A stretch of 32,000 nucleotides of DNA. It comes from Pseudoalteromonas translucida KMM 520. Lineage in GTDB: Bacteria > Pseudomonadota > Gammaproteobacteria > Enterobacterales > Alteromonadaceae. The stretch spans positions 1,800,001 through 1,832,000 of the forward strand of contig NZ_CP011034.1 of assembly GCF_001465295.1 (NCBI RefSeq), given 5' to 3'. The notes beneath the pieces were generated by a model, which made no database searches, was not told where the DNA came from, and was given only the letters and a program-made list of their open reading frames with translations. Made by a program: the position numbers and the translations under genes. Shown piece after piece: positions 4,694 through 14,876 of this stretch (within the stretch, counting starts at the first letter, position 1; each line of letters starts with the position of its first letter).

Positions 4694-4766
4694 GATTAAT
4701 TTACGGCACTGTTAATTATTTTATGCCTGTCCCTTTATTTGTCTTGCCTGTCCCTTTATTTGTCTT
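4694..4766 (+). repeat. Copy 2 of the intergenic repeat family, with a perfect 21 bp tandem duplication
   Basis: GATTAATTTACGGCACTGTTAATTATTTTATGCC, followed by tgcctgtccctttatttgtct twice (4724-4744 and 4745-4765). Confidence 0.75.
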
Positions 4767-4816
4767 AAACAACATAATTGTTAGAATGCCCACCTATTTT
4801 CCCATCAAGAGACACA

Positions 4817-5697: not shown

Positions 5698-5746
5698 GGA
5701 TTTAATTTACGGCACTGTTGCTTATTTTATGCCTGTCCTTTTATTT
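5698..5746 (+). repeat. Copy 3 of the intergenic repeat family, truncated where it abuts an IS fragment
   Basis: GATTTAATTTACGGCACTGTTGCTTATTTTATGCCTGTCCTTTTATTTT, then an abrupt switch into IS110-derived sequence at 5747. Confidence 0.7.
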
Positions 5747-5923
5747 TCATCAGATCATTAGCATTTAAGTGGATAAGAATACTATTTAGGTGCTGGAAAA
5801 CACATACGCCCTACGATGAATCAACTTACTTAATCGCATTGAAAAGTAAGGGATCACCGCTGTTAAAATTTGCGGTGGAAAGTGAGCTTTAGTGCTTGCT
5901 GTCCACCTCAGGGCGTGTTGTTA
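5747..5923 (+). pseudogene. Remnant of an IS110-family element: last 146 nt of the transposase gene plus the right end
   Basis: 177 bp identical to 13885-14061 except one synonymous difference (g5886 vs a14024). Encodes ..IRSLAFKWIRILFRCWKTHTPYDESTYLIALKSKGSPLLKFAVESEL. ORF 5572..5892 is a chimera of this fragment with unrelated sequence. Confidence 0.9.
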
Positions 5924-5930
5924 TGTGCAT

Positions 5931-8279
5931 TTACAGTTCGTCATATACAATATTAATGACTTGTTCAGCTAGTGCTCTTGTGTTTTCAAGCGCGTCATCG
6001 CCAATTTCGTGCATAGGTGTGTTTAAAGTATCTCGAATCGCACTCAAGCGAGCTTCAAGTTCAGCAGTGATATAGCCGTTGTCCCTTAAAGCAGCAGTGC
6101 AAACTGACAGGTCTGATTTCGCTTCACCAAGATCAATGAGCTGTTTCTTAAAACGATGACGAATTTCTCCCTCAAAGAAAGGTCGCAAGGTTGTGAGAAT
6201 GTCGTTATTAGTTTCACGATTAACAAAAGCTTTAATTCTGTCAAAAGCAACATCATGCTCTGTAGCCATCATGTCATCAATTTCAACGGCTTCTATCGAG
6301 CAAGTTTCAGCACCATGAACTAATTTTACCGATTTAGCGCACCGCCTGAATTTCTTCACAGCTTTTGCTGCCATTCCTTTATAGTGAGTCGTTAGTACAA
6401 TTTGTTTAATAGTCCGTTGCAGCTCATCCAGTTTATTGAGAATCAGTGCTATTCGCTCATTGTCAAAACTAGTAACAGGATCATCTAGCACTAAAATAGC
6501 CTTAGCTTTCTCCTCTGCTGGAAGAGACATCACCTTAGCTAAAAATATACAAAGTGCTAGCGCTCTGCGGTCTGACTCACTAAATACTGTATTAATTTTA
6601 TCAGCAGAAATGTCCTCACCTTTAAACTTAACACGAAGGTCATAGATAACTTGTCTGCCGCGATTATTAGGTACTTTGATAATCTCAAAGTTACTTGAGC
6701 CAAGCTGACGAAACAGTCCATTTATCAAATCAAAGTAAGTATCTAAATACGCTGTTTGTGATTGTTCGAGCTGCTGCTTTTGTGCTTTATAAGTAGTATC
6801 TATCCCATTAACAGTTGCTAGCTTCTGCCTGTACTGAACACAAAGTGGCTCTAATGCTATCCGCTTTAGCGCCAAATTAGCTTGTGTTTGTTGTTGTGTG
6901 ATTTCTGTCAATTGATGATTCAGATCCACTTCATTAAGTGAGCCTTTATAAGCATTGAAGATAGCGTTAATTTGCTCTGCGACTACCCAATAGTCATAGA
7001 TAGCTTGATTATACGTTGTTGCTGCTGTATTCAGTACATCGAAGGAAACGAGTTGAGCAGGTTCGTAGGGCGTAGTAAACTTTTGCTCTAATCTCGGTAT
7101 CCAGAATTCCGTTGCTTGCTGGCTATTTGCAATAACGGCATCAAAAGAAGCGAGAATAACCTCATGCTTTTGTTCCAATGAAGCAGTTAAAGGCGCTAGA
7201 GCTTGATTGGTTATAATTTGAGGCTCCACATACAGCTCAAACACTTGTTTATTGGCTTGGTGTAGCTGAATAAGGTTTTCACGAGTATTTGGAATACTAA
7301 ATGGCTGACGAAGGCCATTTAAAGTTTGTCTTGTTTCTTTGTTAAATCTATCAAACTCAGCATTAAAAGCTTGCTGGTACGCAGCGATTAGGCCTTGAGC
7401 ATCAGCACTTAAAGCCTGCCCACAGAAAGGACAATCATCTTTTATTTGTGCGATACCTTGGCTAGCCCAACCTTTAAAAGTAGCTGAGTTGTTCACATGA
7501 TTGCTCATGTGATTTTGCAGTGACACCAATGAATCTTGATGAACATTTTGAAGGCTAGATGCTAGTACAGCATTAATTGAATCAATTGCTTGGGCAAAGT
7601 TGACCTGTGCACCAACCGCACTTAGAACATTACGATGTTTGATTTTTTCAATATTCTGAATGGTAGTTGTGACTTGCAGTTTTGATGCTTCATGTGCCGC
7701 CACGTTAGTTTCTAACTGTTCTTTAGTCTCTGAAGGCAAAGCAGAGTTAACATACGCAGGAACACTACCCACAGCGTGAGTTGTAAATTGCCCTTCAATA
7801 CCAGAAAGAAGTCTTTTTTCATCACGAAGATTGTTATTCATCTCAGCTAAAGCCGCAAACAAGGCGGTGTTACTCTCACCAAGAATAAAACTAGTCATGT
7901 TTTCAGAGTTTGGCCGCTCTTGCTTCTGACCAGTGATTACATTTCTATGTATAAAGCTTTGGTCAAAAACATACAAACCTGAACAATCAGGAGTTTTTAC
8001 TTGCCACTGGCCGTTTTCGAATTTAGATGTAACATTACCTGTCGCAGTACCGAACATGAATTCAACTTTAGGTGGTTTAGTTGGGTCATTTGGTATGCTT
8101 TTTCGGTGCATTATAAAATCAGGAGCATCTTCTGCTAGTGAATGAATAATATCACAGAGGGTACTCTTACCATTTCTGTTCTCACCATATATAACGGTCA
8201 CATCACCAAGATCTATTCCACCTGCAACGGTTTTGGTGAAATTTCCAATACCTTGTATTAGCTTTATTTTTTTTAACAT
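5931..8279 (-). CDS. rloC: RloC/PrrC-like ABC-type ATPase (AAA_13 family) with coiled-coil zinc hook and C-terminal putative anticodon-nuclease region
   Basis: Walker A GENRNGKST. Long Q/L-rich coiled-coil insert containing CPFCGQ (CxxC, nt 7422-7433). Signature-like FSESDRRAL, Walker B ILVLDDPVTSFD, H-loop LTTHY. C-terminal LRPFFEGEIRHRF ... LNTPMHE resembles the R-x3-E...H arrangement of PrrC/RloC ACNase domains. Confidence 0.6.
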   Translation of the reverse strand: MLKKIKLIQGIGNFTKTVAGGIDLGDVTVIYGENRNGKSTLCDIIHSLAEDAPDFIMHRKSIPNDPTKPPKVEFMFGTATGNVTSKFENGQWQVKTPDCSGLYVFDQSFIHRNVITGQKQERPNSENMTSFILGESNTALFAALAEMNNNLRDEKRLLSGIEGQFTTHAVGSVPAYVNSALPSETKEQLETNVAAHEASKLQVTTTIQNIEKIKHRNVLSAVGAQVNFAQAIDSINAVLASSLQNVHQDSLVSLQNHMSNHVNNSATFKGWASQGIAQIKDDCPFCGQALSADAQGLIAAYQQAFNAEFDRFNKETRQTLNGLRQPFSIPNTRENLIQLHQANKQVFELYVEPQIITNQALAPLTASLEQKHEVILASFDAVIANSQQATEFWIPRLEQKFTTPYEPAQLVSFDVLNTAATTYNQAIYDYWVVAEQINAIFNAYKGSLNEVDLNHQLTEITQQQTQANLALKRIALEPLCVQYRQKLATVNGIDTTYKAQKQQLEQSQTAYLDTYFDLINGLFRQLGSSNFEIIKVPNNRGRQVIYDLRVKFKGEDISADKINTVFSESDRRALALCIFLAKVMSLPAEEKAKAILVLDDPVTSFDNERIALILNKLDELQRTIKQIVLTTHYKGMAAKAVKKFRRCAKSVKLVHGAETCSIEAVEIDDMMATEHDVAFDRIKAFVNRETNNDILTTLRPFFEGEIRHRFKKQLIDLGEAKSDLSVCTAALRDNGYITAELEARLSAIRDTLNTPMHEIGDDALENTRALAEQVINIVYDEL

Positions 8280-8380
8280 CTAACACTTATCCTTAAGCCA
8301 TCAATGTAAACTTATTGATAGATAGACCAGTTAATTTATTTTAATCTGACCGAATTTACTGTGAGCGCGAAGTAGCGAAA

Positions 8381-8432
8381 GCACATAACGCCGCGTTCAC
8401 CGGCTTGTCCGGTGCAACGCTTTGTTAGGGGC
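8381..8432 (-). other. attC recombination site (short type) ending the Thoeris cassette
   Basis: Minus strand reads GCCCCTAAC-AAA-GCGTTGCACCGG-ACAAG-CCGGTGAACGC-GGC-GTTATGTGC. TAAC/GTTA cores flank an 11-12 bp stem with one extra base in the 5' arm, and there is no T tract. The inverse core GCCCCTAAC is complementary to the cassette start GTTAGGGGG at 9883-9891. Confidence 0.6.
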
Positions 8433-8434
8433 AT

Positions 8435-9271
8435 TTAAACCCCATTCCTTGCTGATTTAATGTCGAGAAGATTTATCTGTTTTATCTTGTCCTTATGAAT
8501 GACAATTGTAAGCCTTGCTGGATACTTGAATCGCATTTCACTAATACGAAACGTCCACAACATTATTTTCAACAGGTCTTCATCGCTAATAGTTTTGTGT
8601 CCCTTTATTCGAGTTATACCCGATCCAAATATGGGAGTCGACACACTCTCCTGTGCGTATACGTTATTTACCTTGTCCCAAAAATTTATTAGAAACTCAA
8701 GGTATTCAGGCATCGTAATTTCCGCCTTATTGCTTTCATCGAATTTTGTAAATGCAGTTAATAGATAGCTTTTGTAAACACAAACAGTCCCTATCTGATG
8801 ACGAACTTTCTTCCCTGATTTTCTCTCGATGTTGCTTTCAAGTATTTCGCTAGTTTCAAAAGCATAATCACCAATGTAGCGATCTAGCTCTGATACAGAT
8901 ACGTCAAGATGATTTTTGATAAATATGCCATTTAGCGAACTCTCTGCGATTATTTTATTATCTACTAAGGTATCAAAATATTCGTTAAAGGCGATTGCCT
9001 TTAATCCCGGTTCTAAGAAAATATCACCGACTTTTATCGTTACTTCACTTCCTTCAATGTCAATTTCAATTTTATTTAGATTGTTAGACCATACCCAAAT
9101 CATCAAATAGATTACTAATAATGCACCTATAAAAATCCATCCATAAGTGGTTTTGCATTCTTCTGGTATACCAACAAACAGAACAACCAATGACAAAGTC
9201 GCGCTTATCCCTGAGGTGATTTTTAAAAAGTTATCAATCACCCTCCTGTCAAACAGACTAACCTTACTCAT
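8435..9271 (-). CDS. thsA: Thoeris type II effector-like protein ThsA: two N-terminal TM helices plus a C-terminal Macro-like domain
   Basis: TM helices ITSGISATLSLVVLFVGIP and GWIFIGALLVIYLMIWVWS. The soluble domain begins VTIKVGDIFLEPGLKAIAFNEYFDT, reminiscent of the macro-domain GDIT..AIVNAAN strand-loop. Lies immediately downstream of a TIR-like gene in the same unit. Confidence 0.6.
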   Translation of the reverse strand: MSKVSLFDRRVIDNFLKITSGISATLSLVVLFVGIPEECKTTYGWIFIGALLVIYLMIWVWSNNLNKIEIDIEGSEVTIKVGDIFLEPGLKAIAFNEYFDTLVDNKIIAESSLNGIFIKNHLDVSVSELDRYIGDYAFETSEILESNIERKSGKKVRHQIGTVCVYKSYLLTAFTKFDESNKAEITMPEYLEFLINFWDKVNNVYAQESVSTPIFGSGITRIKGHKTISDEDLLKIMLWTFRISEMRFKYPARLTIVIHKDKIKQINLLDIKSARNGV

Positions 9272-9354
9272 AGTTTATACCAATATAAACCCGCTGCCCT
9301 CTTCGTCGCCAACATGAAGTCACTATCCTTTAAGGCTGCCTCTATGATTGCTTT

Positions 9355-9831
9355 TTACATTGGAATATGAAGAGTAGGAACCTTGTACATCGAATCTCTG
9401 AAGATAGGTAATTTGTTCCACAGGTTTTTTACTGACTGCTTCAACGATCCATTCAGCAGAAGACTTTCTTTCGAGTCATAATCTGGATAAATAACAATAA
9501 CAGGAAGTCCTTGATCGTTGATGCCATAATCAATCTCTTCTCGTAGTGCTCTTGAGCTAACTGTATTAGAGCTTAAAAATAATACAATATTTTTTGAGCT
9601 TCTAAGGCGTTCTCTCAGTCGTGGTTTCAACGTGGTTTCCCAAGCGCTATTGTCACGGACGTTATATGTCTTGCCATGTGAATCATTAAAAGGAAATGAT
9701 GCGTCCTTCCCTTTCCATGCTCGCAACATGTTGTAGTAGCAAAAATCTTTTGTAGCATGTGCACCTAGTGCGCTTGCGTTAAACGGCTCTGCAACATAAA
9801 AGGCTGCGTAATTTCCATTTCGATATGCCAT
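9355..9831 (-). CDS. thsB: TIR-like domain protein (DUF1863/MTH538 TIR-like), Thoeris ThsB
   Basis: 158 aa. NGNYAAFYV.. start, FPFNDSH...VRDNSAWETTLKPRLRERLRSSKNIVLFLSSNTVSSRALREEIDYG is the typical TIR-like (PF08937-type) pattern. GGAGG RBS 4 nt upstream of the ATG. Confidence 0.7.
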   Translation of the reverse strand: MAYRNGNYAAFYVAEPFNASALGAHATKDFCYYNMLRAWKGKDASFPFNDSHGKTYNVRDNSAWETTLKPRLRERLRSSKNIVLFLSSNTVSSRALREEIDYGINDQGLPVIVIYPDYDSKESLLLNGSLKQSVKNLWNKLPIFRDSMYKVPTLHIPM

Positions 9832-9882
9832 ATTTCCTCCACGTAATTAAGAATTTTGATAAATGCCTAGTTTGACTGCTGG

Positions 9883-9990
9883 CCCCCTAACGCTTAAATA
9901 ACAGGCTAAGTAATGGTTGGCTAAAATTGTGTAGCGAAGCGAAACGTAGCCAACTGTTACGTGTCCTTGTTTATTTTCTTGTTAGCTTAC
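9883..9990 (-). other. attC recombination site (about 108 bp) ending the HEPN cassette
   Basis: Minus strand reads GTAAGCTAAC-AAGAAAATAAACAAGGACACGTAACAGTTGGCTA...TAGCCAACCATTACTTAGCCTGTTATTTAAGC-GTTAGGGGG. It is a long imperfect palindrome with extra bases in the 5' arm. The HEPN gene stop codon lies inside the inverse core. It shares CTAACGC, AATGGTTGGCTA, GCCAACTGTT and GTTAGC blocks with the site at 12436-12523. Confidence 0.75.
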
Positions 9991-10569
9991 ATTTGTGTAT
10001 TGAGGTCTACCAATTAAATCAATGTCTATATCTTTTAGCATTGCTCCATTAGTCCATATTAATTCTAGTTGTCGAGCCGCCTCTTTATATCGGGCAGCGC
10101 TATCAATATCAGAATATGCAGCTATTTTCATGTCAGGAAATAACCTAGGAAGTTTATCATTAGGAGTATCATGTGGAACTTCATGAGTAGCTGTCGTTTT
10201 ATGAGGTTTTGCATGAGCTAACCAATTCCGGAATTTGATCATTTCTTGTATAGTCTGCCAAGGCTGTGCTGAAAAATCAGCATCAACTCCTAATTCTTTG
10301 GAAACAAGAATGATTTTTCCAATTATGGAAGTAGACTCAAAATTCTTCCACTGACTTTTAAATAGCTGTGACCCATAGACATTCGCAGTAGCTTCTACGG
10401 AAAAAACAGAAAAAATCATTGATGGAATTATCCATCTAAATTTATGGCCTGGTTCTTCTTTTTCCGCCATATTGAACTGGTTACTTGCAATAGATTGAAG
10501 CGGTATTATTTCAGGGCACTCAACAGTTATTTTTACTTTTTTGGTACGACTCAAAGGTAAACTCTCCAT
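9982..10569 (-). CDS. Stand-alone HEPN-domain protein (predicted RNase), 195 aa
   Basis: Rx4H motif R114-N-W-L-A-H119 (nt 10213-10230) within a predicted helical protein. An upstream helix ..FSVFSVEATANVYG.. is typical of HEPN helix 1. Met34 is an alternative start. Confidence 0.55.
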   Translation of the reverse strand: MESLPLSRTKKVKITVECPEIIPLQSIASNQFNMAEKEEPGHKFRWIIPSMIFSVFSVEATANVYGSQLFKSQWKNFESTSIIGKIILVSKELGVDADFSAQPWQTIQEMIKFRNWLAHAKPHKTTATHEVPHDTPNDKLPRLFPDMKIAAYSDIDSAARYKEAARQLELIWTNGAMLKDIDIDLIGRPQYTNVS

Positions 10570-10580
10570 GTAAGCTAACG

Positions 10581-12435
10581 AGCCTGTAGATTAACTCGTT
10601 TTTTTATTTGTTTTTATTGATAAACAAACCATAGCTGAGTTCCTATTTTGGTTCAATCGATTACTTATTTTATGCAGAATATAAAGTGGGAGTTTGATGT
10701 TGTTTTAATTGGCATTTTGGAAGCTATTACTGGTGTTTAAGTGGCTTTATTTTAGGTTAAAAGGGCTTCCCCTTCCTAATGCATCGTGTTTTGCAGCTTT
10801 TCTATATTATGAACAAGGCAATACAGTTGCCATTGTGCATTCACTTTCATTTGACCCCGTAAGGTCAACTTATTCATGCCTTTATTCACTGTAATGTTGC
10901 CAAACACCGGTTCAATACAACCAAGTCGTTTACTGTATTGTCGTCGACCTATCGGGCTGTCTATTTTTACTTTCATTTTGTCTACATAGCTCAGCTTTTT
11001 GCGTGATTCATTATTGATAAACTGCACTTGTCGCCCTGTTTTAATCGGCGGCTTTCGCATGCATTGTTGCTGTAGCGGACACGTTTTACAGTCTTTTAAG
11101 TAACCGCAGAACCGGGTGTATTTTTGGTTATGGCTGTTTACATTTATACCGCTTCGCCACATGGCATTGCCTGCGGGGCAGCGGCATGTTTGGGTTGCTT
11201 CATCATAATGAAAATCATCTGAGGTAAATAGTCGTGGTTTGCCTTTACTGCGTTTTAGTCTGCGCTTTTCTTGCTCCGTTTCGTATGTTTCGCTGGCTTT
11301 AAACAGCGGGTTTCTTTTTCTAAATTGGTTATCCGCAATGTAGGTATCGAACCCGCTTTTCGCCATAAATTCAAGATTCACTTCGCTGTTAAACCCACTG
11401 TCTGCAGTGAATTTAATGGTGGGTTCATCTGCCCGTTTTTCTGTATTGAGTTTAGCAAGCTGCTGTTTTAATTGTGCAATGGCTGGCTGTAAGGTTTGTT
11501 GTTCACCCACTGAACCCCACGCTTGAGCTTGCAAGATAATTTGGTGTTTATCGTCATTTATCGCGATGCCGTTGTAGCCTTGAATTGTGCCTTTTGAGGT
11601 GGTCATTTTCGCGCTGTCGGGGTCGGTGATATTACTTTTAACTGGCTTGCCTTTACTGCCTGTTTTTTCTTTGTGAGTGGCTAAGAACTCGGTGATTTTG
11701 TCTGCACTTTTATCCAGCTTTTCTTTTTGTTTTAAGTCCTGAGTTATCAACTCTTCGCCCAGTTCATCTTGTGATTGGTGGCGCTCAATAATACGTTTGC
11801 TTGCGCGTTCTAGTTTTGCTTTTTTGCGACCTAACTCATCGAATGTGCCGCTCCACTCTTTACTCGCATTGGACTTTAATTTACATCCATCAATGGCAAA
11901 CATATTGCGGCCTATCAAGCCTTCCTCATCACATATCATCAGTACTTGCGTAAAAAGCGGCTCAATCTGTTCATGCATTTTAGCCACAAAACCCGCTATA
12001 GATGTGTAATGCGGCTGGATATCCCCCGATACACTCATAAATAAAATATTATTCTCGCAAGCCTTTGCAATCCGACGGCTACTAATTAATCCATGTGCAT
12101 AACCCAGTAAAATAATCTTTAACATCACCGATGGCGGATACGCCGCCGCGCCCGTTTTGTCGTTGTTATACCACGCATCAAAGCCCGATAAATCGAGCTT
12201 GTTTTCGACAATATAACAAAGAGCATATTCAAATGTGCCAGGCAAAATTTGCTCAGCAAAATTGATAGGAATGAATTTATTTTGACAGGACAAGTCAGGC
12301 TTGTAGTTGGCCATAACGATTTACCGTGGGTGAATAATATCTATTAGATCACAGCGAACGGATGGGTTCAAGGTTAAAAAGCAATCAATTCGAAATAGTA
12401 AGATACGTTCCTAAAAAGAGTAATTCTACAGCCTC
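10581..12435 (-). mobile_element. IS1182-family insertion sequence (about 1.85 kb) inserted in the GTTA core of an attC site
   Basis: Terminal inverted repeats (G)AGCCTGTAGATTAACTCGTTTTT (left) vs GAGGCTGTAGAATTACTCTTTTT (reverse complement of the right end). Flanked by direct repeat AAC(G) at 10577-10580 and 12436-12439. Removing it restores CTAACGCCTTGCTAAGCGG.., which parallels the attC at 9883-9990. Confidence 0.8.
10776..12314 (-). CDS. IS1182-family DDE transposase
   Basis: 512 aa. N-terminal ..AYPPSVMLKIILLGYAHGLISSRRIAKACENNILFMSVSG.. (the transposase InsH/DUF772-like signature of IS1182/IS5-type enzymes). C-terminal Cys-rich region and DDE region. Confidence 0.85.
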   Translation of the reverse strand: MANYKPDLSCQNKFIPINFAEQILPGTFEYALCYIVENKLDLSGFDAWYNNDKTGAAAYPPSVMLKIILLGYAHGLISSRRIAKACENNILFMSVSGDIQPHYTSIAGFVAKMHEQIEPLFTQVLMICDEEGLIGRNMFAIDGCKLKSNASKEWSGTFDELGRKKAKLERASKRIIERHQSQDELGEELITQDLKQKEKLDKSADKITEFLATHKEKTGSKGKPVKSNITDPDSAKMTTSKGTIQGYNGIAINDDKHQIILQAQAWGSVGEQQTLQPAIAQLKQQLAKLNTEKRADEPTIKFTADSGFNSEVNLEFMAKSGFDTYIADNQFRKRNPLFKASETYETEQEKRRLKRSKGKPRLFTSDDFHYDEATQTCRCPAGNAMWRSGINVNSHNQKYTRFCGYLKDCKTCPLQQQCMRKPPIKTGRQVQFINNESRKKLSYVDKMKVKIDSPIGRRQYSKRLGCIEPVFGNITVNKGMNKLTLRGQMKVNAQWQLYCLVHNIEKLQNTMH

Positions 12436-12523
12436 AACGCCTTGCTAAGCGGATAAAAATGGTTGGCTATAATCGCGCAGCGATGGCCAACTGTTTTTAT
12501 TCCGTTTAAGCAACTTATAGTTA
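12436..12523 (-). other. Body of the attC site of the protease cassette, separated from both of its core sites by IS insertions
   Basis: Imperfect palindrome CTAACGCCTTGCTAAGCGGATAAAAATGGTTGGC...GCCAACTGTTTTTATTCCGTTTAAGCAACTTATAGTTA. Its GTTA core end is at 10571-10580 across the IS1182. Its inverse core (GAGTGCTAAC, 14058-14067) lies across the IS110 element. Confidence 0.7.
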
Positions 12524-12761
12524 CTCCGTTCCATTAATTAATGTATTTACCTATCTCATTAATACATGGAATATGCTTCTGTTGATCACGAATATTTGAG
12601 CGGAAACAATCAATGTTTGTAACAAGACTTTCGGATCAACAGGAGTAATTTGTTTCAATACGCATACTCAGGGATTGTCGTAATGCCGACTATCTATAAG
12701 ACTTGCGAGAAACACTATTAGCCTCTATTTATTCTTTCACTTTACCTCTAGGAGGCCCAAA
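12524..12761 (+). ncRNA. Candidate IS110 bridge (seeker) RNA encoded in the left non-coding end
   Basis: 238 nt non-coding leader upstream of the recombinase gene. Hairpin CCATTAATTAATG/CATTAATACATGG (12531-12569). CTCAGGGATTGTCGTAA (12667-12683) resembles the element right end CTCAGGGCGTGTTGTTA (14045-14061). CTATAAG (12694-12700) is the reverse complement of the target flank CTTATAG (12514-12520). There is no direct evidence of transcription. Confidence 0.35.
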
Positions 12762-14030
12762 ATGGAAGCCTTTAACGTCTCAGGTTTTGCTGCCCTTATC
12801 GGGATCGATTGGGCCGACCGTAAACATGATATTTGTGAAATAAACCGCGACACAAACACACAACATTTAAGTGTGATTTCCTCTGAACCTAAGTCAATTA
12901 ATGCATGGGCGCTTGAGTTAAAACAACGCTACAACGGCAGACCCGTTGCTGTCGCGTGTGAGCTAAAAAAAGGTCCACTTATATATGCACTCAGTAAATT
13001 TAAGCACATTATATTATTTGTGATTAACCCATCAAGTGTCGCCAAATACCGTGCAGCATTTTCGCACAGCGGGGCTAAAGATGATCCTACTGATGCGATT
13101 ATTCAAGTTGAAATTCTACAACTTCACATGGATAAATTAACGGTTATTAGACCTGACACAGAAGAAGTTAGGTGCCTTGCACAGCTTGTCGAATACAGAC
13201 GTAAATTAGTACAAGATCGTGTTAATTTAACCAATAAAATAGCCACAACGCTAAAAAATTATTACCCCCACGTGATTGATTGGTTTAAAGAAAAGGACAC
13301 TCAAATATTCTGTGACTTTTTACTGCGTTGGCCATCTCTTACTCACGCTAAAAAAGCGAGAAAGCAAACACTACTCGACTTCTTTAATCAACATAACTCC
13401 CGCTACCCACTCGTTAATGAAAAGCGGATAAAAGAAATAAAGGATGCTGAAATTCTCACCGATGATATGGCCGTGATCACGCCAAACTTATTGCTTATTG
13501 AATGCCTCGTTCCTCAACTCAAACATCTAATGCAGGCAATAACCCGATTTGATAACGAAATTAAAACGCTTTATAAGCAACATTCAGATCGCGCTATTTT
13601 TGATAGTTTACCAGGTGCAGGACCACAATTAGCGCCTCGGTTATTAGCCGCTATGGGGTCAAATCGTGACCGTTATAAGTGCGCTGCTGACATACAAAAA
13701 TACGCAGGCATTGCCCCTGTTACCGAGCGCAGTGGCAAGAAGGAATGGATACACTGGCGATATTCGTGCACTAAATTTTTAAGGCAAACATTTGTTGAAT
13801 GGGCAGGATTATCTGTGCGTTATTCATTTTGGGCAAAAGCATATTATCGGCAGCAAGAGGCCAAAGGAAAACCCCATAATACCATCATCAGATCATTAGC
13901 ATTTAAGTGGATAAGAATACTATTTAGGTGCTGGAAAACACATACGCCCTACGATGAATCAACTTACTTAATCGCATTGAAAAGTAAGGGATCACCGCTG
14001 TTAAAATTTGCGGTGGAAAGTGAACTTTAG
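12762..14030 (+). CDS. IS110-family DEDD transposase/recombinase
   Basis: 422 aa. N-terminal RuvC-like DEDD domain (ALIGIDWADRKHDICE). C-terminal Transposase_20 region (LPGAGPQLAPRLLAAMG ... YAGIAPVTERSGKK). GGAGG RBS upstream. Confidence 0.9.
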   Translation: MEAFNVSGFAALIGIDWADRKHDICEINRDTNTQHLSVISSEPKSINAWALELKQRYNGRPVAVACELKKGPLIYALSKFKHIILFVINPSSVAKYRAAFSHSGAKDDPTDAIIQVEILQLHMDKLTVIRPDTEEVRCLAQLVEYRRKLVQDRVNLTNKIATTLKNYYPHVIDWFKEKDTQIFCDFLLRWPSLTHAKKARKQTLLDFFNQHNSRYPLVNEKRIKEIKDAEILTDDMAVITPNLLLIECLVPQLKHLMQAITRFDNEIKTLYKQHSDRAIFDSLPGAGPQLAPRLLAAMGSNRDRYKCAADIQKYAGIAPVTERSGKKEWIHWRYSCTKFLRQTFVEWAGLSVRYSFWAKAYYRQQEAKGKPHNTIIRSLAFKWIRILFRCWKTHTPYDESTYLIALKSKGSPLLKFAVESEL

Positions 14031-14058
14031 TGCTTGCTGTCCACCTCAGGGCGTGTTG

Positions 14059-14751
14059 TTAGCACTCTTCAATTTCACGAATAAACTTAATAAGATCTTT
14101 AGCGGAATGCGCTAAACCCAATTCAACTATGCGATAAATACTCTCAGCAAATTTATCTCCGTTATCTTCAACATCTGTAAAGGAATGAACTTCTATCGAT
14201 GATTCATGATTACTGAATAACATTCCAGCTAGCTTACCTGTTTGCTCGCTAACCAAAGGACTACCGCTAAAGCCCTTTAAGGAAGGGAAAGATAATTCTG
14301 TAGTTGTATGAGCTAATGGGTGGTTAGATGTCTCCGAGTTACTAACTACATATCCTTTTAGCATTCGTGCATTAATATTAACAACCTTATTTTTTTGCCC
14401 AATATTATTAAAGCCAAAAGCTCTTACATCATGACCTGGTAAGTACTCTGTGTCATTAAGTTCAAAACACTTGTAGCTTTGGTGTTTGATAAAGTTTCCA
14501 ATGGCAAAATCATATTTAGGATGTGATTTTATGTTGTAGATAACATCAATGTCACCACTAATTAAATTTTTACCAAGTAGAACCTCGCCTTCTTGAACCA
14601 TTTCAATTATATGCCTACACGTTGCAATTTTCCCTTCGTTACCGATGAAAAAAGCAACACCAGCATAGCGGTCTATATCAAAATGAAGAGTACTCCCTTC
14701 ATGTCTTCTTTTAGCGATGAGTAATGTGATTTGATATTCGCCGTAGTTCAT
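14059..14751 (-). CDS. Cytoplasmic trypsin-fold (S1-like) serine protease, 230 aa
   Basis: Catalytic triad in canonical order: H47 (IATCRHII), D81 (KYDFAIG), S162 (LKGFSGSPL). No signal peptide. GGAG RBS 7 nt upstream. The stop codon lies inside the attC inverse core TGCTAAC. Confidence 0.65.
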   Translation of the reverse strand: MNYGEYQITLLIAKRRHEGSTLHFDIDRYAGVAFFIGNEGKIATCRHIIEMVQEGEVLLGKNLISGDIDVIYNIKSHPKYDFAIGNFIKHQSYKCFELNDTEYLPGHDVRAFGFNNIGQKNKVVNINARMLKGYVVSNSETSNHPLAHTTTELSFPSLKGFSGSPLVSEQTGKLAGMLFSNHESSIEVHSFTDVEDNGDKFAESIYRIVELGLAHSAKDLIKFIREIEEC

Positions 14752-14760
14752 TAATACTCC

Positions 14761-14876
14761 AGAGTGCTAACAGCTTATTGAACACCACTTTGGGAGGTTA
14801 TAACACCCCAAAACGGCGCATATTACATTGCTCGATAACCAAACCAAACAACTTACTTATAAACAAGTAGTTACAA
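14761..14876 (-). other. attC-like region upstream of the protease cassette; GTTA core certain, outer boundary uncertain
   Basis: Minus strand ..AAGCTGTTAGCACTCT: the GTTAGCACTCT core is the exact reverse complement of the inverse core at 14058-14068. Upstream there are imperfect palindromes (TTGGGGTGTTATAACCTCCCAA) and a possible inverse core TTGTAAC at 14870-14876. Confidence 0.4.

Follow-up and report, generated by a model that had tools for sequence, protein, structure and literature searches.

A one-gene integron cassette of Pseudoalteromonas translucida encodes a putative solo HEPN protein, a candidate abortive-infection ribonuclease

HEPN proteins are characterized by an Rx4-6H motif at the end of the third helix, in which the arginine is followed by a polar residue, and by a conserved acidic residue in the second helix (PMC3710099). 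Among the closest described systems, HepS ('HEPN Solo'), encoded by the Gifsy-1 prophage of Salmonella, is an anticodon nuclease of the solo HEPN type that is held inactive in a tetramer (PMC13043305). Esos, a cassette of the chromosomal integron of V. cholerae N16961, contains a HEPN-like domain only and has measured anti-phage activity (10.1101/2024.07.02.601686), and a V. mimicus cassette encoding a protein with a HEPN AbiU2 domain protects against both T4 and T7 (10.64898/2026.03.17.712381). Vpc_cass2 (PDB 3JRT) represents the 'Integron cassette HEPN' family (PMC3548836; PMC3710099), while the families HEPN_RiboL-PSP (PF18735) and HEPN_MAE_28990 (PF18737) were defined by Anantharaman et al. 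2013 (PMC3710099).

Here we analyse a gene of this kind in a window of 32,000 nucleotides from Pseudoalteromonas translucida KMM 520 (contig NZ_CP011034.1, positions 1,800,001 to 1,832,000). Coordinates are those of the window, and residues are numbered throughout on the 195-aa form of the protein that starts at the in-frame ATG at 10569, five residues longer than the form starting at a downstream TTG.

The cassette and its array

The gene occupies a 688-bp unit on the minus strand (9891–10578), which begins with the TT of the G|TT junction upstream and ends with the G of the R' core of its own attC. Read on the minus strand, the upstream junction is ...ggctc G|TTAGCTTAC ATG... (G at 10579, TT at 10578–10577) and the downstream junction ...aagc G|TTAGGGG (G at 9891, TT at 9890–9889), so that the 688-bp unit bounded by G|TT junctions in the initial annotation is recovered as 10578 to 9891. 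Both the ORF list and the sequence confirmed the ORF of 195 aa (9982–10569, minus strand) and its attC, and no second gene would fit in the cassette. The stop codon TAA (9984–9982) lies, as had been noticed, inside the inverse core AGCTAAC (9987–9981), which is the exact complement of G+TTAGCT, the first bases of the same cassette. A start and an inverse core that complement each other mark a circularisable integron cassette, and the same relation was found in three neighbouring cassettes of the array (TTAGGG/CCCTAAC in Thoeris, TTATGTG/CACATAA in PDC-S06 and TTAGCAC/GTGCTAA in the trypsin-like cassette).

The attC of the HEPN cassette (9885–9987, minus strand) comprises the R'' site AGCTAAC at 9987–9981, with the stop codon, and the R' site GTTAGGG at 9891–9885. 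For its bottom strand, the predicted fold is a bulged R-box/L-box hairpin (−13.4 kcal/mol, z = −1.6). The attC core AACAGTTGGC...GCCAACCAT occurs in two copies in the window against none expected, and the site is ∼80% identical to attCs located on Vibrio, Aliivibrio and Pseudoalteromonas replicons. These sites were located with a relaxed TAAC...GTTA scan, as the strict RYYYAAC core misses real sites. DNA similarity of the cassette to Shewanella and metagenome copies starts exactly at TTAG and stops just past AGCTAAC. The 688-bp unit is a genuine one-gene integron cassette.

The neighbour annotation agrees with the location previously described, between Thoeris and protease cassettes. Directly downstream lies a two-gene Thoeris cassette (8389–9890, minus strand) with a ThsB TIR gene (9355–9831), a ThsA Macro gene (8435–9271) and a 48-nt attC, followed by a cassette encoding a 782-aa AAA_13 ATPase (5920–8388, minus strand) that matches the PADLOC candidate PDC-S06 over its full length (E 2.2e-176). 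Upstream, a trypsin-like serine protease cassette (14058–14770, minus strand; CDS 14059–14751) showed only weak PADLOC similarities, and the cold-shock/Excalibur cassette of the array gave only a weak PADLOC match (CSD_V, E 2.5e-07). The array, which the initial annotation had called defence-only, is better described as defence-rich, and the defence context of its five cassettes is weak evidence for the function of the HEPN protein. The trypsin-like protease and Thoeris were also considered as functional partners and were discarded, since neither recurs beside any relative.

Two insertion sequences now separate the HEPN cassette from the trypsin-like one. An IS1182-family element (10580–12435, minus strand) with imperfect inverted repeats (GAGGCTGTAGA / GAGCCTGTAGA) has entered the upstream attC at its G|TT, with GTT flanking both sides, and its transposase gene (10776–12314) is co-oriented with the HEPN gene. 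As had been reported, the element approaches the ATG to within 11 nt: it ends at 10580, on the upstream G|TT junction, 10–11 nt before the ATG. Behind it, the attC of the preceding trypsin-like cassette continues with its 3' part (12436–12510, minus strand), which abutted the HEPN cassette before the IS insertions. An IS110-family element with approximate boundaries (12511–14057, plus strand) follows directly after the R'' ...GCTAAC of that trypsin-cassette attC.

Translation start, selection and expression

The likeliest coding sequence spans 9982–10554 (minus strand) and encodes 190 aa from a TTG at 10554, a choice grounded in the conserved start, the homologue alignment and RefSeq, whose call is the 190-aa form WP_157756046.1. 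The earlier reading had taken as start codon the ATG directly after the 10-nt cassette start, leaving no 5' leader, and proposed Met34 as an alternative start; none of these points held. The ATG was rejected as the functional start because it is out of frame in the two closest DNA homologues, where it lies 13 and 14 nt before the TTG, versus 15 nt here. What is kept in the window copy and in both of these homologues is ACATGGAGAG, which includes a GGAG Shine-Dalgarno sequence (10564–10567, minus strand) 9 nt before the TTG, and the N-termini of the homologues read MSRTKK or LSRTKK. Taken together, these data indicate that the functional start is likely the TTG at 10554 and that the cassette carries a short leader. 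A start at Met34 was discarded as implausible, since residues 9–32 are conserved among the homologues.

The ORF is a real gene under purifying selection: it has 16 close homologues (40–85% identity), and against a 79%-identical copy we counted 67 synonymous and 40 non-synonymous codon differences.

How the window copy might be expressed is a separate matter. None of the window ORFs encodes an integron integrase, the window lacks a Pc and housekeeping genes come after the array, which looks like an integrase-less attC cluster or an IS-separated fragment. Likewise, no consensus promoter was detected in the 200 bp upstream, at the end of the IS1182 element. The window copy may thus be silent, and a stronger version of this idea regards it as a silent or decaying passenger, promoterless, cut off from any Pc by the two IS immediately upstream and without current function in the strain, as the frameshift in the Shewanella orthologue could also suggest. 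We consider this passenger reading quite improbable, since the ORF is intact, the Shine-Dalgarno sequence and all the invariant residues are retained and copies in P. nigrifaciens are >90% identical to the window protein. The common orientation of the IS1182 transposase gene and the HEPN gene moreover makes read-through transcription possible.

HEPN motif, relatives and predicted structure

The codons of the motif R114-N-W-L-A-H119 (10213–10230, minus strand) and of the acidic residue E59 (10393–10395, minus strand) mark the features on which the family assignment turns. In the AF2 model (pLDDT 95.5) the Rx4H motif sits at the C-terminal end of a helix comprising residues 104–118 and E59 within the long second helix (44–69), a layout like that described for HEPN domains (PMC3710099). 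The clean Rx4H motif in a helical context that had been noted at these nucleotides was thereby borne out, with the arginine and the histidine invariant and closing helix 104–118. In an alignment of 95 diverse relatives with a mean column identity of 23%, E59, R114 and H119 were invariant and N115 was 95% conserved; the invariance of E59 in helix 44–69 fits the acidic residue expected in helix 2. N63 was invariant as well. The hydrophobic stretch 44–66 had raised the alternative of a membrane protein, which was rejected, as this stretch belongs to a core helix that carries E59 and N63.

An exhaustive profile search retrieved single-domain relatives of roughly 190 aa falling into ∼983 clusters at 50% identity. 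Pfam matches among the 95 relatives went almost exclusively to HEPN models, including HEPN_RiboL-PSP (PF18735; 28 relatives, best E 4e-6), HEPN_MAE_28990 (PF18737; 19), Cthe_2314 (PF18730; 9), Swt1 (PF18731; 6), Apea (PF18739; 5) and HepT (PF01934; 4), while any other Pfam family was matched weakly by at most two of them. The five best Pfam matches of the family consensus were all HEPN models, the score against PF18735 (23.1 bits, E 7.8e-5) lying below the gathering threshold of 28.4 bits. Weak PADLOC matches of the relatives likewise pointed to HEPN-containing models, RTasHEPN being touched by 20 of the 95 (best E 1.5e-4).

The profile link to HEPN families is transitive, passing through the relatives and the consensus. 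The window protein itself matched nothing in Pfam (E ≤ 10), NCBIfam, PADLOC or PHROG, and a Pfam scan of the 16 close homologues returned a single HepT-like match (E 0.19). PDB sequences searched with the 16- and 95-sequence profiles and with the consensus yielded nothing at E ≤ 10 except chance matches to uS2. The view that no named HEPN defence family can be assigned stands accordingly: Pfam and the PADLOC scan, which had been suggested as a check, gave zero matches for the window protein, those to the named Abi families (AbiD/F, AbiJ, AbiU2, AbiV, ApeA) included. The hallmark contexts of RiboL-PSP-HEPN proteins, namely fusion to an endoRNase L-PSP domain or an operon with ParB, were absent from this single-domain protein and its cassette, and neither L-PSP nor ParB appeared among the precomputed Pfam calls of neighbours in related loci. 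In UniProt the exact window protein is named 'RiboL-PSP-HEPN domain-containing', hence the HEPN call is not new. On the basis of the invariant E...R-N-x3-H pattern in the 95 relatives and their near-exclusive HEPN matches in Pfam, we place the protein with confidence in the HEPN superfamily (Pfam clan CL0291).

Fold comparison was less decisive. HEPN domains accounted for 7 of the 26 first PDB fold matches, ranks 1–3 included (3o10, 1wol, 7bxo, 1ufb, 2q00, 1ylm, 4nqf), with a best E of 0.09 and TM scores of 0.27–0.45 on the query and 0.33–0.67 on the target; Foldseek searches with two models against PDB and one against BFVD gave no match with E < 0.09. The profile and structure searches that had been proposed as a check therefore split: the relatives match almost only HEPN models, but none of the fold matches, the best of which are mostly HEPN domains, is significant (E ≥ 0.09). 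The model also shows N- and C-terminal beta-strands of its own and an insert at residues 120–155.

Many HEPN domains are non-catalytic, such as the substrate-binding domains of nucleotidyltransferases (PMC3548836), and proteins of this type (1wol, 1ufb) are found among the fold matches. The protein could be an inactive HEPN-like bundle that binds nucleotide, RNA or protein and serves as adaptor, as anti-defence factor or within a system whose other part is encoded elsewhere; in one distant relative, a Rap1a-like gene starts right after the stop codon. This appears very unlikely, given that an acidic residue in helix 2 and the arginine, polar residue and histidine of the motif, all of them invariant or nearly so, form the pattern of active HEPN RNases, and that neither an MNT or nucleotidyltransferase gene next to it nor a partner recurring in 15 loci was found.

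Distribution, proposed function and relation to known systems

In Shewanella, Halomonas, Onishia and a Spirulina MAG, relatives of the gene occur as cassettes bounded by attC sites. The Shewanella metallivivens cassette has a start (GTTAGCTTACATGGAGAG) and an R'' site (AGCTAAC) identical to those of the window, and in Halomonas halocynthiae four attCs lie in a row around the gene. Other relatives are plasmid-borne (on one plasmid of 12 kb in Acinetobacter, one with Rep3/MobA and a conjugative one in Pantoea), reside in small islands of Aeromonas and Neisseria or, in one setting, lie beside a serine recombinase. None of the window's neighbour genes recurs in 27 related loci. Within 3 kb, no recurrent neighbour was detected in 15 distinct loci, the window included, apart from replication genes common to two plasmids and one weak, unrelated pair. 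The gene is solo and mobile, without a conserved partner, in line with the absence of a partner gene stated initially. Prophage carriage is typical of many Abi genes; no relatives were found in GenBank phages or IMG/VR, hence such carriage is not evident in this family.

RNase activity, toxicity and a role against phages by abortive infection are suggested by context and by analogy with other solo HEPN proteins. In the mechanism that we infer, from oligomerisation to expression, the ∼190-aa protein would form a homo-oligomer, at least a dimer, in which two R114-N-x3-H119 motifs aided by E59 would build a metal-independent endoribonuclease site. This site would be inactive in uninfected cells, which could explain how the gene exists without an antitoxin. 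A cue derived from a phage or another mobile genetic element would activate the protein, which would then cut tRNA, mRNA or rRNA, so that translation stops and the infection is aborted. As a promoterless cassette the gene is mobile, and in this genome it would be expressed by transcription from the abutting IS1182 or after relocation close to a promoter. That the protein is an RNase seems probable; for the whole chain, in which a solo HEPN RNase acts in abortive infection like HepS or Esos, we see roughly even chances. A stand-alone abortive-infection enzyme is a reasonable and unsurprising candidate role.

Instead of sensing phages, the same enzyme might be a toxin of general stress or dormancy, or might act where mobile elements compete (against plasmids, or in cassette or plasmid maintenance). 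HEPN proteins in integron cassettes have been proposed to induce dormancy under stress (Anantharaman et al., PMC3710099), some members of the present family lie beside VapBC on small plasmids, one is near psiB/ssb of the Pantoea conjugative plasmid, and the phage collections searched yielded no phage-borne copies. We nevertheless hold this alternative to be unlikely: a lone toxin that lacks an antidote cannot work as an addiction module, none of the adjacent genes is a conserved regulator or antitoxin, and the neighbours in the window are dedicated anti-phage systems.

A more specific form of the abortive-infection reading, which we put forward tentatively and with some doubt, is that these proteins constitute an undescribed, widespread family (∼1,000 clusters at 50% identity, for which Pfam, NCBIfam, PADLOC and PHROG have no model) of minimal solo HEPN immune proteins of ∼190 aa, in which the beta-sheet and the 120–155 insert would serve as a sensor or autoinhibitory clasp, and whose sequence would be unrelated to Vpc_cass2 and, compared by description, to HepS. 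If so, a single protein, among the smallest known in defence and disseminated by integrons, plasmids and small islands, would both sense infection and cleave RNA. Should the cassette protein prove to be an active defence RNase of the solo HEPN kind, it would bring a new, compact family into the anti-phage repertoire, one that is easy to test because it is a single gene for 190 aa in a 688-bp mobile unit. The recent finding that chromosomal integrons bank miniaturised defence systems would then reach past Vibrio to Pseudoalteromonas, Shewanella and the Halomonadaceae. Since this large family lacks annotation, some ∼1,000 sequence clusters would gain a label from a Pfam or DefenseFinder model based on it. 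No concept would be changed, as both defence by solo HEPN proteins and integron cassettes with HEPN genes are already documented.

Among known systems, HepT/MntA has an HEPN RNase toxin whose fold the cassette protein would share: two structures of HepT (7bxo, 6m6w) are weak fold matches, and the HepT-like Pfam model is touched by 4 of the 95 relatives. Unlike HepT, the cassette protein is ∼60 residues longer and has no MNT antitoxin gene in the cassette or beside any relative. Of all Pfam models, PF18735 and PF18737 score best with the relatives and with the consensus, and they share the R-N-x3-H motif, but the scores remain under the gathering thresholds and the window protein scores nothing; the endoRNase L-PSP fusions and the ParB or DNA methylase operons of those families are absent here, and the cassette family has its own terminal beta-strands and 120–155 insert. 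Vpc_cass2 is a HEPN-type four-helix bundle, as our protein probably is, and resembles it in its origin in a single-gene integron cassette of marine gammaproteobacteria, the extra elements between helices 3 and 4 and the relatives in Shewanella. The conserved residues differ, being K63, E66 and H109 there and E59, R114, N115 and H119 here, and 3JRT was neither matched by sequence among PDB chains at E ≤ 10 nor present in the 50 best fold matches.

Esos, compared by description, is likewise a one-gene integron cassette with a HEPN-like domain as its sole recognisable feature, is missed by DefenseFinder-type tools and defends by growth arrest or cell death, the model that we propose for the cassette protein; V. 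cholerae proteins were absent from the family members recovered in a non-exhaustive retrieval. HepS was also compared by description, the cassette protein having no detectable sequence or fold similarity to any PDB entry, and no ORF with an R100-x4-H105 motif was recognized among nine small ORFs of Gifsy-1 in LT2, from the replication genes to the antirepressor-like gene. HepS is prophage-borne, whereas the cassette family was not found in phage collections. Both are single small HEPN proteins with a canonical Rx4H motif (R100-H105 in HepS), carried by a mobile element without a partner or inhibitor gene, and HepS offers a model of how sensing and killing might be joined in one protein, as an autoinhibited oligomer that opens on a trigger.

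A distinct protein family, very probably within the HEPN superfamily

No Pfam, NCBIfam, PADLOC or PHROG model is matched by the protein encoded by the HEPN cassette, whose residues are numbered here on the 195-aa form. When 1.84 billion representative proteins were searched exhaustively with a profile, 983 clusters were retrieved at E ≤ 1e-3, including 255 at E ≤ 1e-10, and the best 150 of the 983 were mostly single-domain proteins of ~190 aa. Across 95 diverse members, aligned with a mean column identity of 23%, E59, R114 and H119 are invariant, while conservation is 94% or higher at N63, G66, W74, K85, P103 and N115. An R-x4-H in one sequence is unremarkable, since its chance in a protein of such length is by our estimate roughly 0.2; judged from the alignment, its invariance over the divergence of the 95 members is not chance, which bears out the Rx4H HEPN motif that the initial annotation had proposed at R114–H119. 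When each member was scanned separately against Pfam, the families matched by at least three of the 95 were exclusively HEPN families, namely HEPN_RiboL-PSP (28 members, best E 4e-6), HEPN_MAE_28990 (19), Cthe_2314 (9), Swt1 (6), Apea (5) and HepT (4). Against RiboL-PSP the majority consensus scored 23.1 bits (E 7.8e-5), under the 28.4-bit threshold, with four further HEPN models next in rank, and UniProt names exactly this protein 'RiboL-PSP-HEPN domain-containing'.

AlphaFold2 modelling with the 95-sequence alignment gave a pLDDT of 95.5 and a pTM of 0.86, with predicted strands at residues 11–16 and 189–194, the latter presumably pairing with the N-terminal strand, helices at 21–37, 44–69, 82–92, 104–118 and 155–178, and a mostly non-helical insert at 120–155. 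In the model, helix 104–118 is closed by R114...H119 and E59 lies within the long second helix, the same arrangement as in the HEPN layout described by Anantharaman et al. (PMC3710099). In Foldseek searches with the AlphaFold2 models, neither PDB nor viral structures gave a significant match; HEPN domains nonetheless make up several of the top-ranking, non-significant PDB fold matches, ranks 1–3 included (sacsin 3o10, 1wol, HepT 7bxo, 1ufb, 2q00 with a target TM of 0.67, YutE 1ylm and 4nqf), and no PDB sequence matched the family profiles. Membership of the HEPN superfamily is very probable, and we conclude that the protein represents a distinct, unmodelled family within it, nearest to RiboL-PSP and MAE_28990 and with terminal beta-strands and an insert of its own. 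The family is uncharacterised and lacks a model in all four databases, although a HEPN label is already present in UniProt; its kind is known, both as solo HEPN proteins on mobile elements and as HEPN proteins carried as integron cassettes.

Cassette boundaries, translation start and the surrounding array

The ORF reported at 9982..10569 on the minus strand (195 aa) is present in the window. The junctions read on that strand, ...TCTACAGGCTC G|TTAGCTTAC ATGGAGAG... upstream (G = 10579) and ...GTAAGCTAAC AAG ... TTTAAGC G|TTAGGGGGCC downstream of the stop (G = 9891), delimit 10578..9891, in agreement with the 688-bp unit claimed, and the TAA does lie inside the inverse core AGCTAAC (9987-9981). 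The 5' end of the cassette, TTAGCT, is the exact complement of this inverse core, a rule also obeyed by three neighbouring units: the Thoeris cassette (TTAGGG start 9890; R'' CCCTAAC 8430), the PDC-S06 cassette after it (TTATGTG start 8388; CACATAAC at 5927-5920) and the trypsin-like cassette (TTAGCAC start 14770; GTGCTAAC at 14065-14058). The + strand at 9885-9990, which is the bottom strand of the HEPN cassette, folds into a bulged hairpin with paired R and L boxes (computed at −13.4 kcal/mol, z = −1.6). Two copies of the attC core AACAGTTGGC...GCCAACCAT are present in the window where none would be expected, and the attC shares ~80% identity with attCs from replicons of Vibrio, Aliivibrio and Pseudoalteromonas, including Pseudoalteromonas chromids. 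Given these junctions, the start/inverse-core complementarity, the hairpin and the attC matches, the HEPN unit is a genuine integron cassette. The attC (9885-9987) is also ~80% identical to sequence at the metallo-beta-lactamase gene blaVMB-1 on Vibrio plasmids NZ_MH113855.1 and NZ_OQ622010.1, which hints at a marine attC type common to the resistance cassette and the HEPN cassette.

Sixteen close homologues are mostly 190 aa long and begin with MSRTKK or LSRTKK. ACATGGAGAG is conserved in the two closest DNA relatives of the cassette, where the ATG-to-TTG spacing is 13 or 14 nt, out of frame, versus 15 nt in the window, and RefSeq annotates the 190-aa form. On this evidence translation most probably starts at TTG 10554, preceded by the Shine-Dalgarno sequence GGAG (10567-10564), and not at the ATG at 10569 chosen initially. 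The cassette would thus bear a 24-nt leader with its own ribosome-binding site, so that of the supposed lack of a 5' leader only the lack of a promoter within the cassette stands. Met34, once offered as an alternative start, is impossible because L24, S26, I27, A28, N30 and Q31 are invariant in the 16 homologues.

An IS1182-family element (12435-10580; transposase versus NF033551, E 5.8e-78; inverted repeats GAGGCTGTAGA and GAGCCTGTAGA), correctly placed just upstream of the ORF, is inserted precisely at the G|TT junction and flanked on each side by GTT, and its in-silico excision restores ...AAGGCG|TTAGCTTACATGG. Its transposase gene points the same way as the cassette genes, and the element may be silencing the HEPN cassette or else driving its expression. 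A less favoured reading makes the cassette a silent passenger in KMM 520, given that the window contains no Pc promoter, that no consensus promoter lies in the 200 bp before the cassette, and that there are two IS elements upstream. The second, of the IS110 family (12511-14057), occupies the same attC as IS1182, that of the trypsin-like cassette, directly after R'' …GCTAAC. A truncated copy of its end (177 nt, 99% identical, 5747-5923) follows CACATAAC at the equivalent position in the PDC-S06-cassette attC, a pattern that looks like an attC-targeting IS110/IS1111-type insertion and then a deletion ending the array. A short, partly tandem repeat family, TTTTATGCCTGTCCCTTTATTTGTC, occurs at 1607-1685, 4696-4770 and 5702-5749, the last copy adjoining the truncated IS110 fragment.

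The array is defence-rich and not, as first described, defence-only. Immediately downstream lies Thoeris (ThsB TIR, ThsA Macro; 8389-9890; PADLOC E 2.7e-70 and 7e-123), followed by a 2.4-kb cassette for a 782-aa AAA_13 ATPase (5931-8279), whose match to the PADLOC candidate system PDC-S06 covers its full length (E 2.2e-176). Upstream, the 230-aa trypsin-like protease of a single-gene cassette (14059-14751; E 1.6e-8) has only weak similarity to the defence-system protease modules RT-Protease_XI, PDC-M35A and LmuA, and may be another uncharacterised solo effector; further upstream, a cold-shock/Excalibur protein with Pfam domains matches PADLOC only weakly (CSD_V, E 2.5e-07). Thoeris is here a complete system packed in one two-gene cassette, whose attC is very short (48 nt); a similar 48-nt attC occurs in a Halomonas array (L010, 7317-7364). 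The five cassettes span 15.7 to 5.9 kb with housekeeping genes on the flanks, the biotin-synthesis genes (bio operon) lie at 18.4-22.3 kb, and neither an integron integrase nor attI was found across the whole window. Overall it resembles an attC cluster that lacks an integrase.

A mobile gene without a recurrent partner

Relatives occur in attC-bounded cassettes of four other genera. The Shewanella metallivivens copy (L009, 6001-6676; 80% identity) shares the cassette 5' end and R'' and has an unrelated attC interior, and a 1-nt deletion shifts its frame, so that the copy is a pseudogene or else misassembled; in Halomonas halocynthiae the gene lies amid four consecutive attCs, and the remaining two are Onishia niordana and a Spirulina MAG. 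Other relatives reside on a 12-kb Acinetobacter plasmid adjoining VapBC, on a Rep3/MobA plasmid, on a Pantoea conjugative plasmid with psiB/ssb nearby, in Aeromonas caviae on a small island, in Neisseria subflava with iscS and iscU on either side, beside a large serine recombinase on a metagenome contig, and in many Acinetobacter baumannii genomes.

None of the window's neighbour genes recurs across 27 related loci, and within 3 kb no gene recurs in 15 distinct loci, window included, except plasmid replication genes that two of the plasmids have in common and a single weak pair that is unrelated; the solo character claimed for the gene is upheld. In a distant subfamily (L021, 4001-4891; ~32% identity) a Rap1a-like gene begins directly after the HEPN stop codon, the sole hint of a possible partner in the family. 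Relative to a 79%-identical copy, 67 codons differ synonymously and 40 non-synonymously, which indicates purifying selection on the HEPN gene.

Proposed function and relation to known systems

On the model of HEPN RNases already characterised, the R-N-x3-H motifs of two protomers would be juxtaposed and so make a metal-independent endoribonuclease site. Since the gene is maintained in many genetic contexts with no antitoxin, the protein would have to be inactive at rest. The parallel is HepS, an anticodon nuclease that is likewise a solo HEPN protein and whose closed resting tetramer opens in response to a phage tail-tip protein (PMC13043305). A trigger would activate the enzyme and lead to abortive infection. 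Anti-phage activity has been measured for two integron cassettes whose sole reported domain feature is of this kind, Esos of V. cholerae, with a HEPN-like domain (10.1101/2024.07.02.601686), and a HEPN-AbiU2 protein of V. mimicus (10.64898/2026.03.17.712381). Following HepS and these two cassettes, we favour a trigger-activated solo RNase causing abortive infection. RNase activity appears likely on this analogy, the rival being a non-catalytic binding module; an anti-phage role has about an even chance, against which stands the role first put forward for cassette HEPNs, that of a toxin acting in general stress or between MGEs (PMC3710099).

Among named systems, the family differs from RiboL-PSP (PF18735) in not reaching Pfam's own threshold and in lacking the L-PSP and ParB associations of that family. 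A HepT/MntA module was rejected because there is no MNT gene. The protein matches neither 3JRT, the earlier 'integron cassette HEPN' structure, nor any other solved structure in the PDB sequence and fold searches. Its likeness to HepS and Esos is drawn at the level of description, as solo HEPN or HEPN-like proteins on mobile elements.
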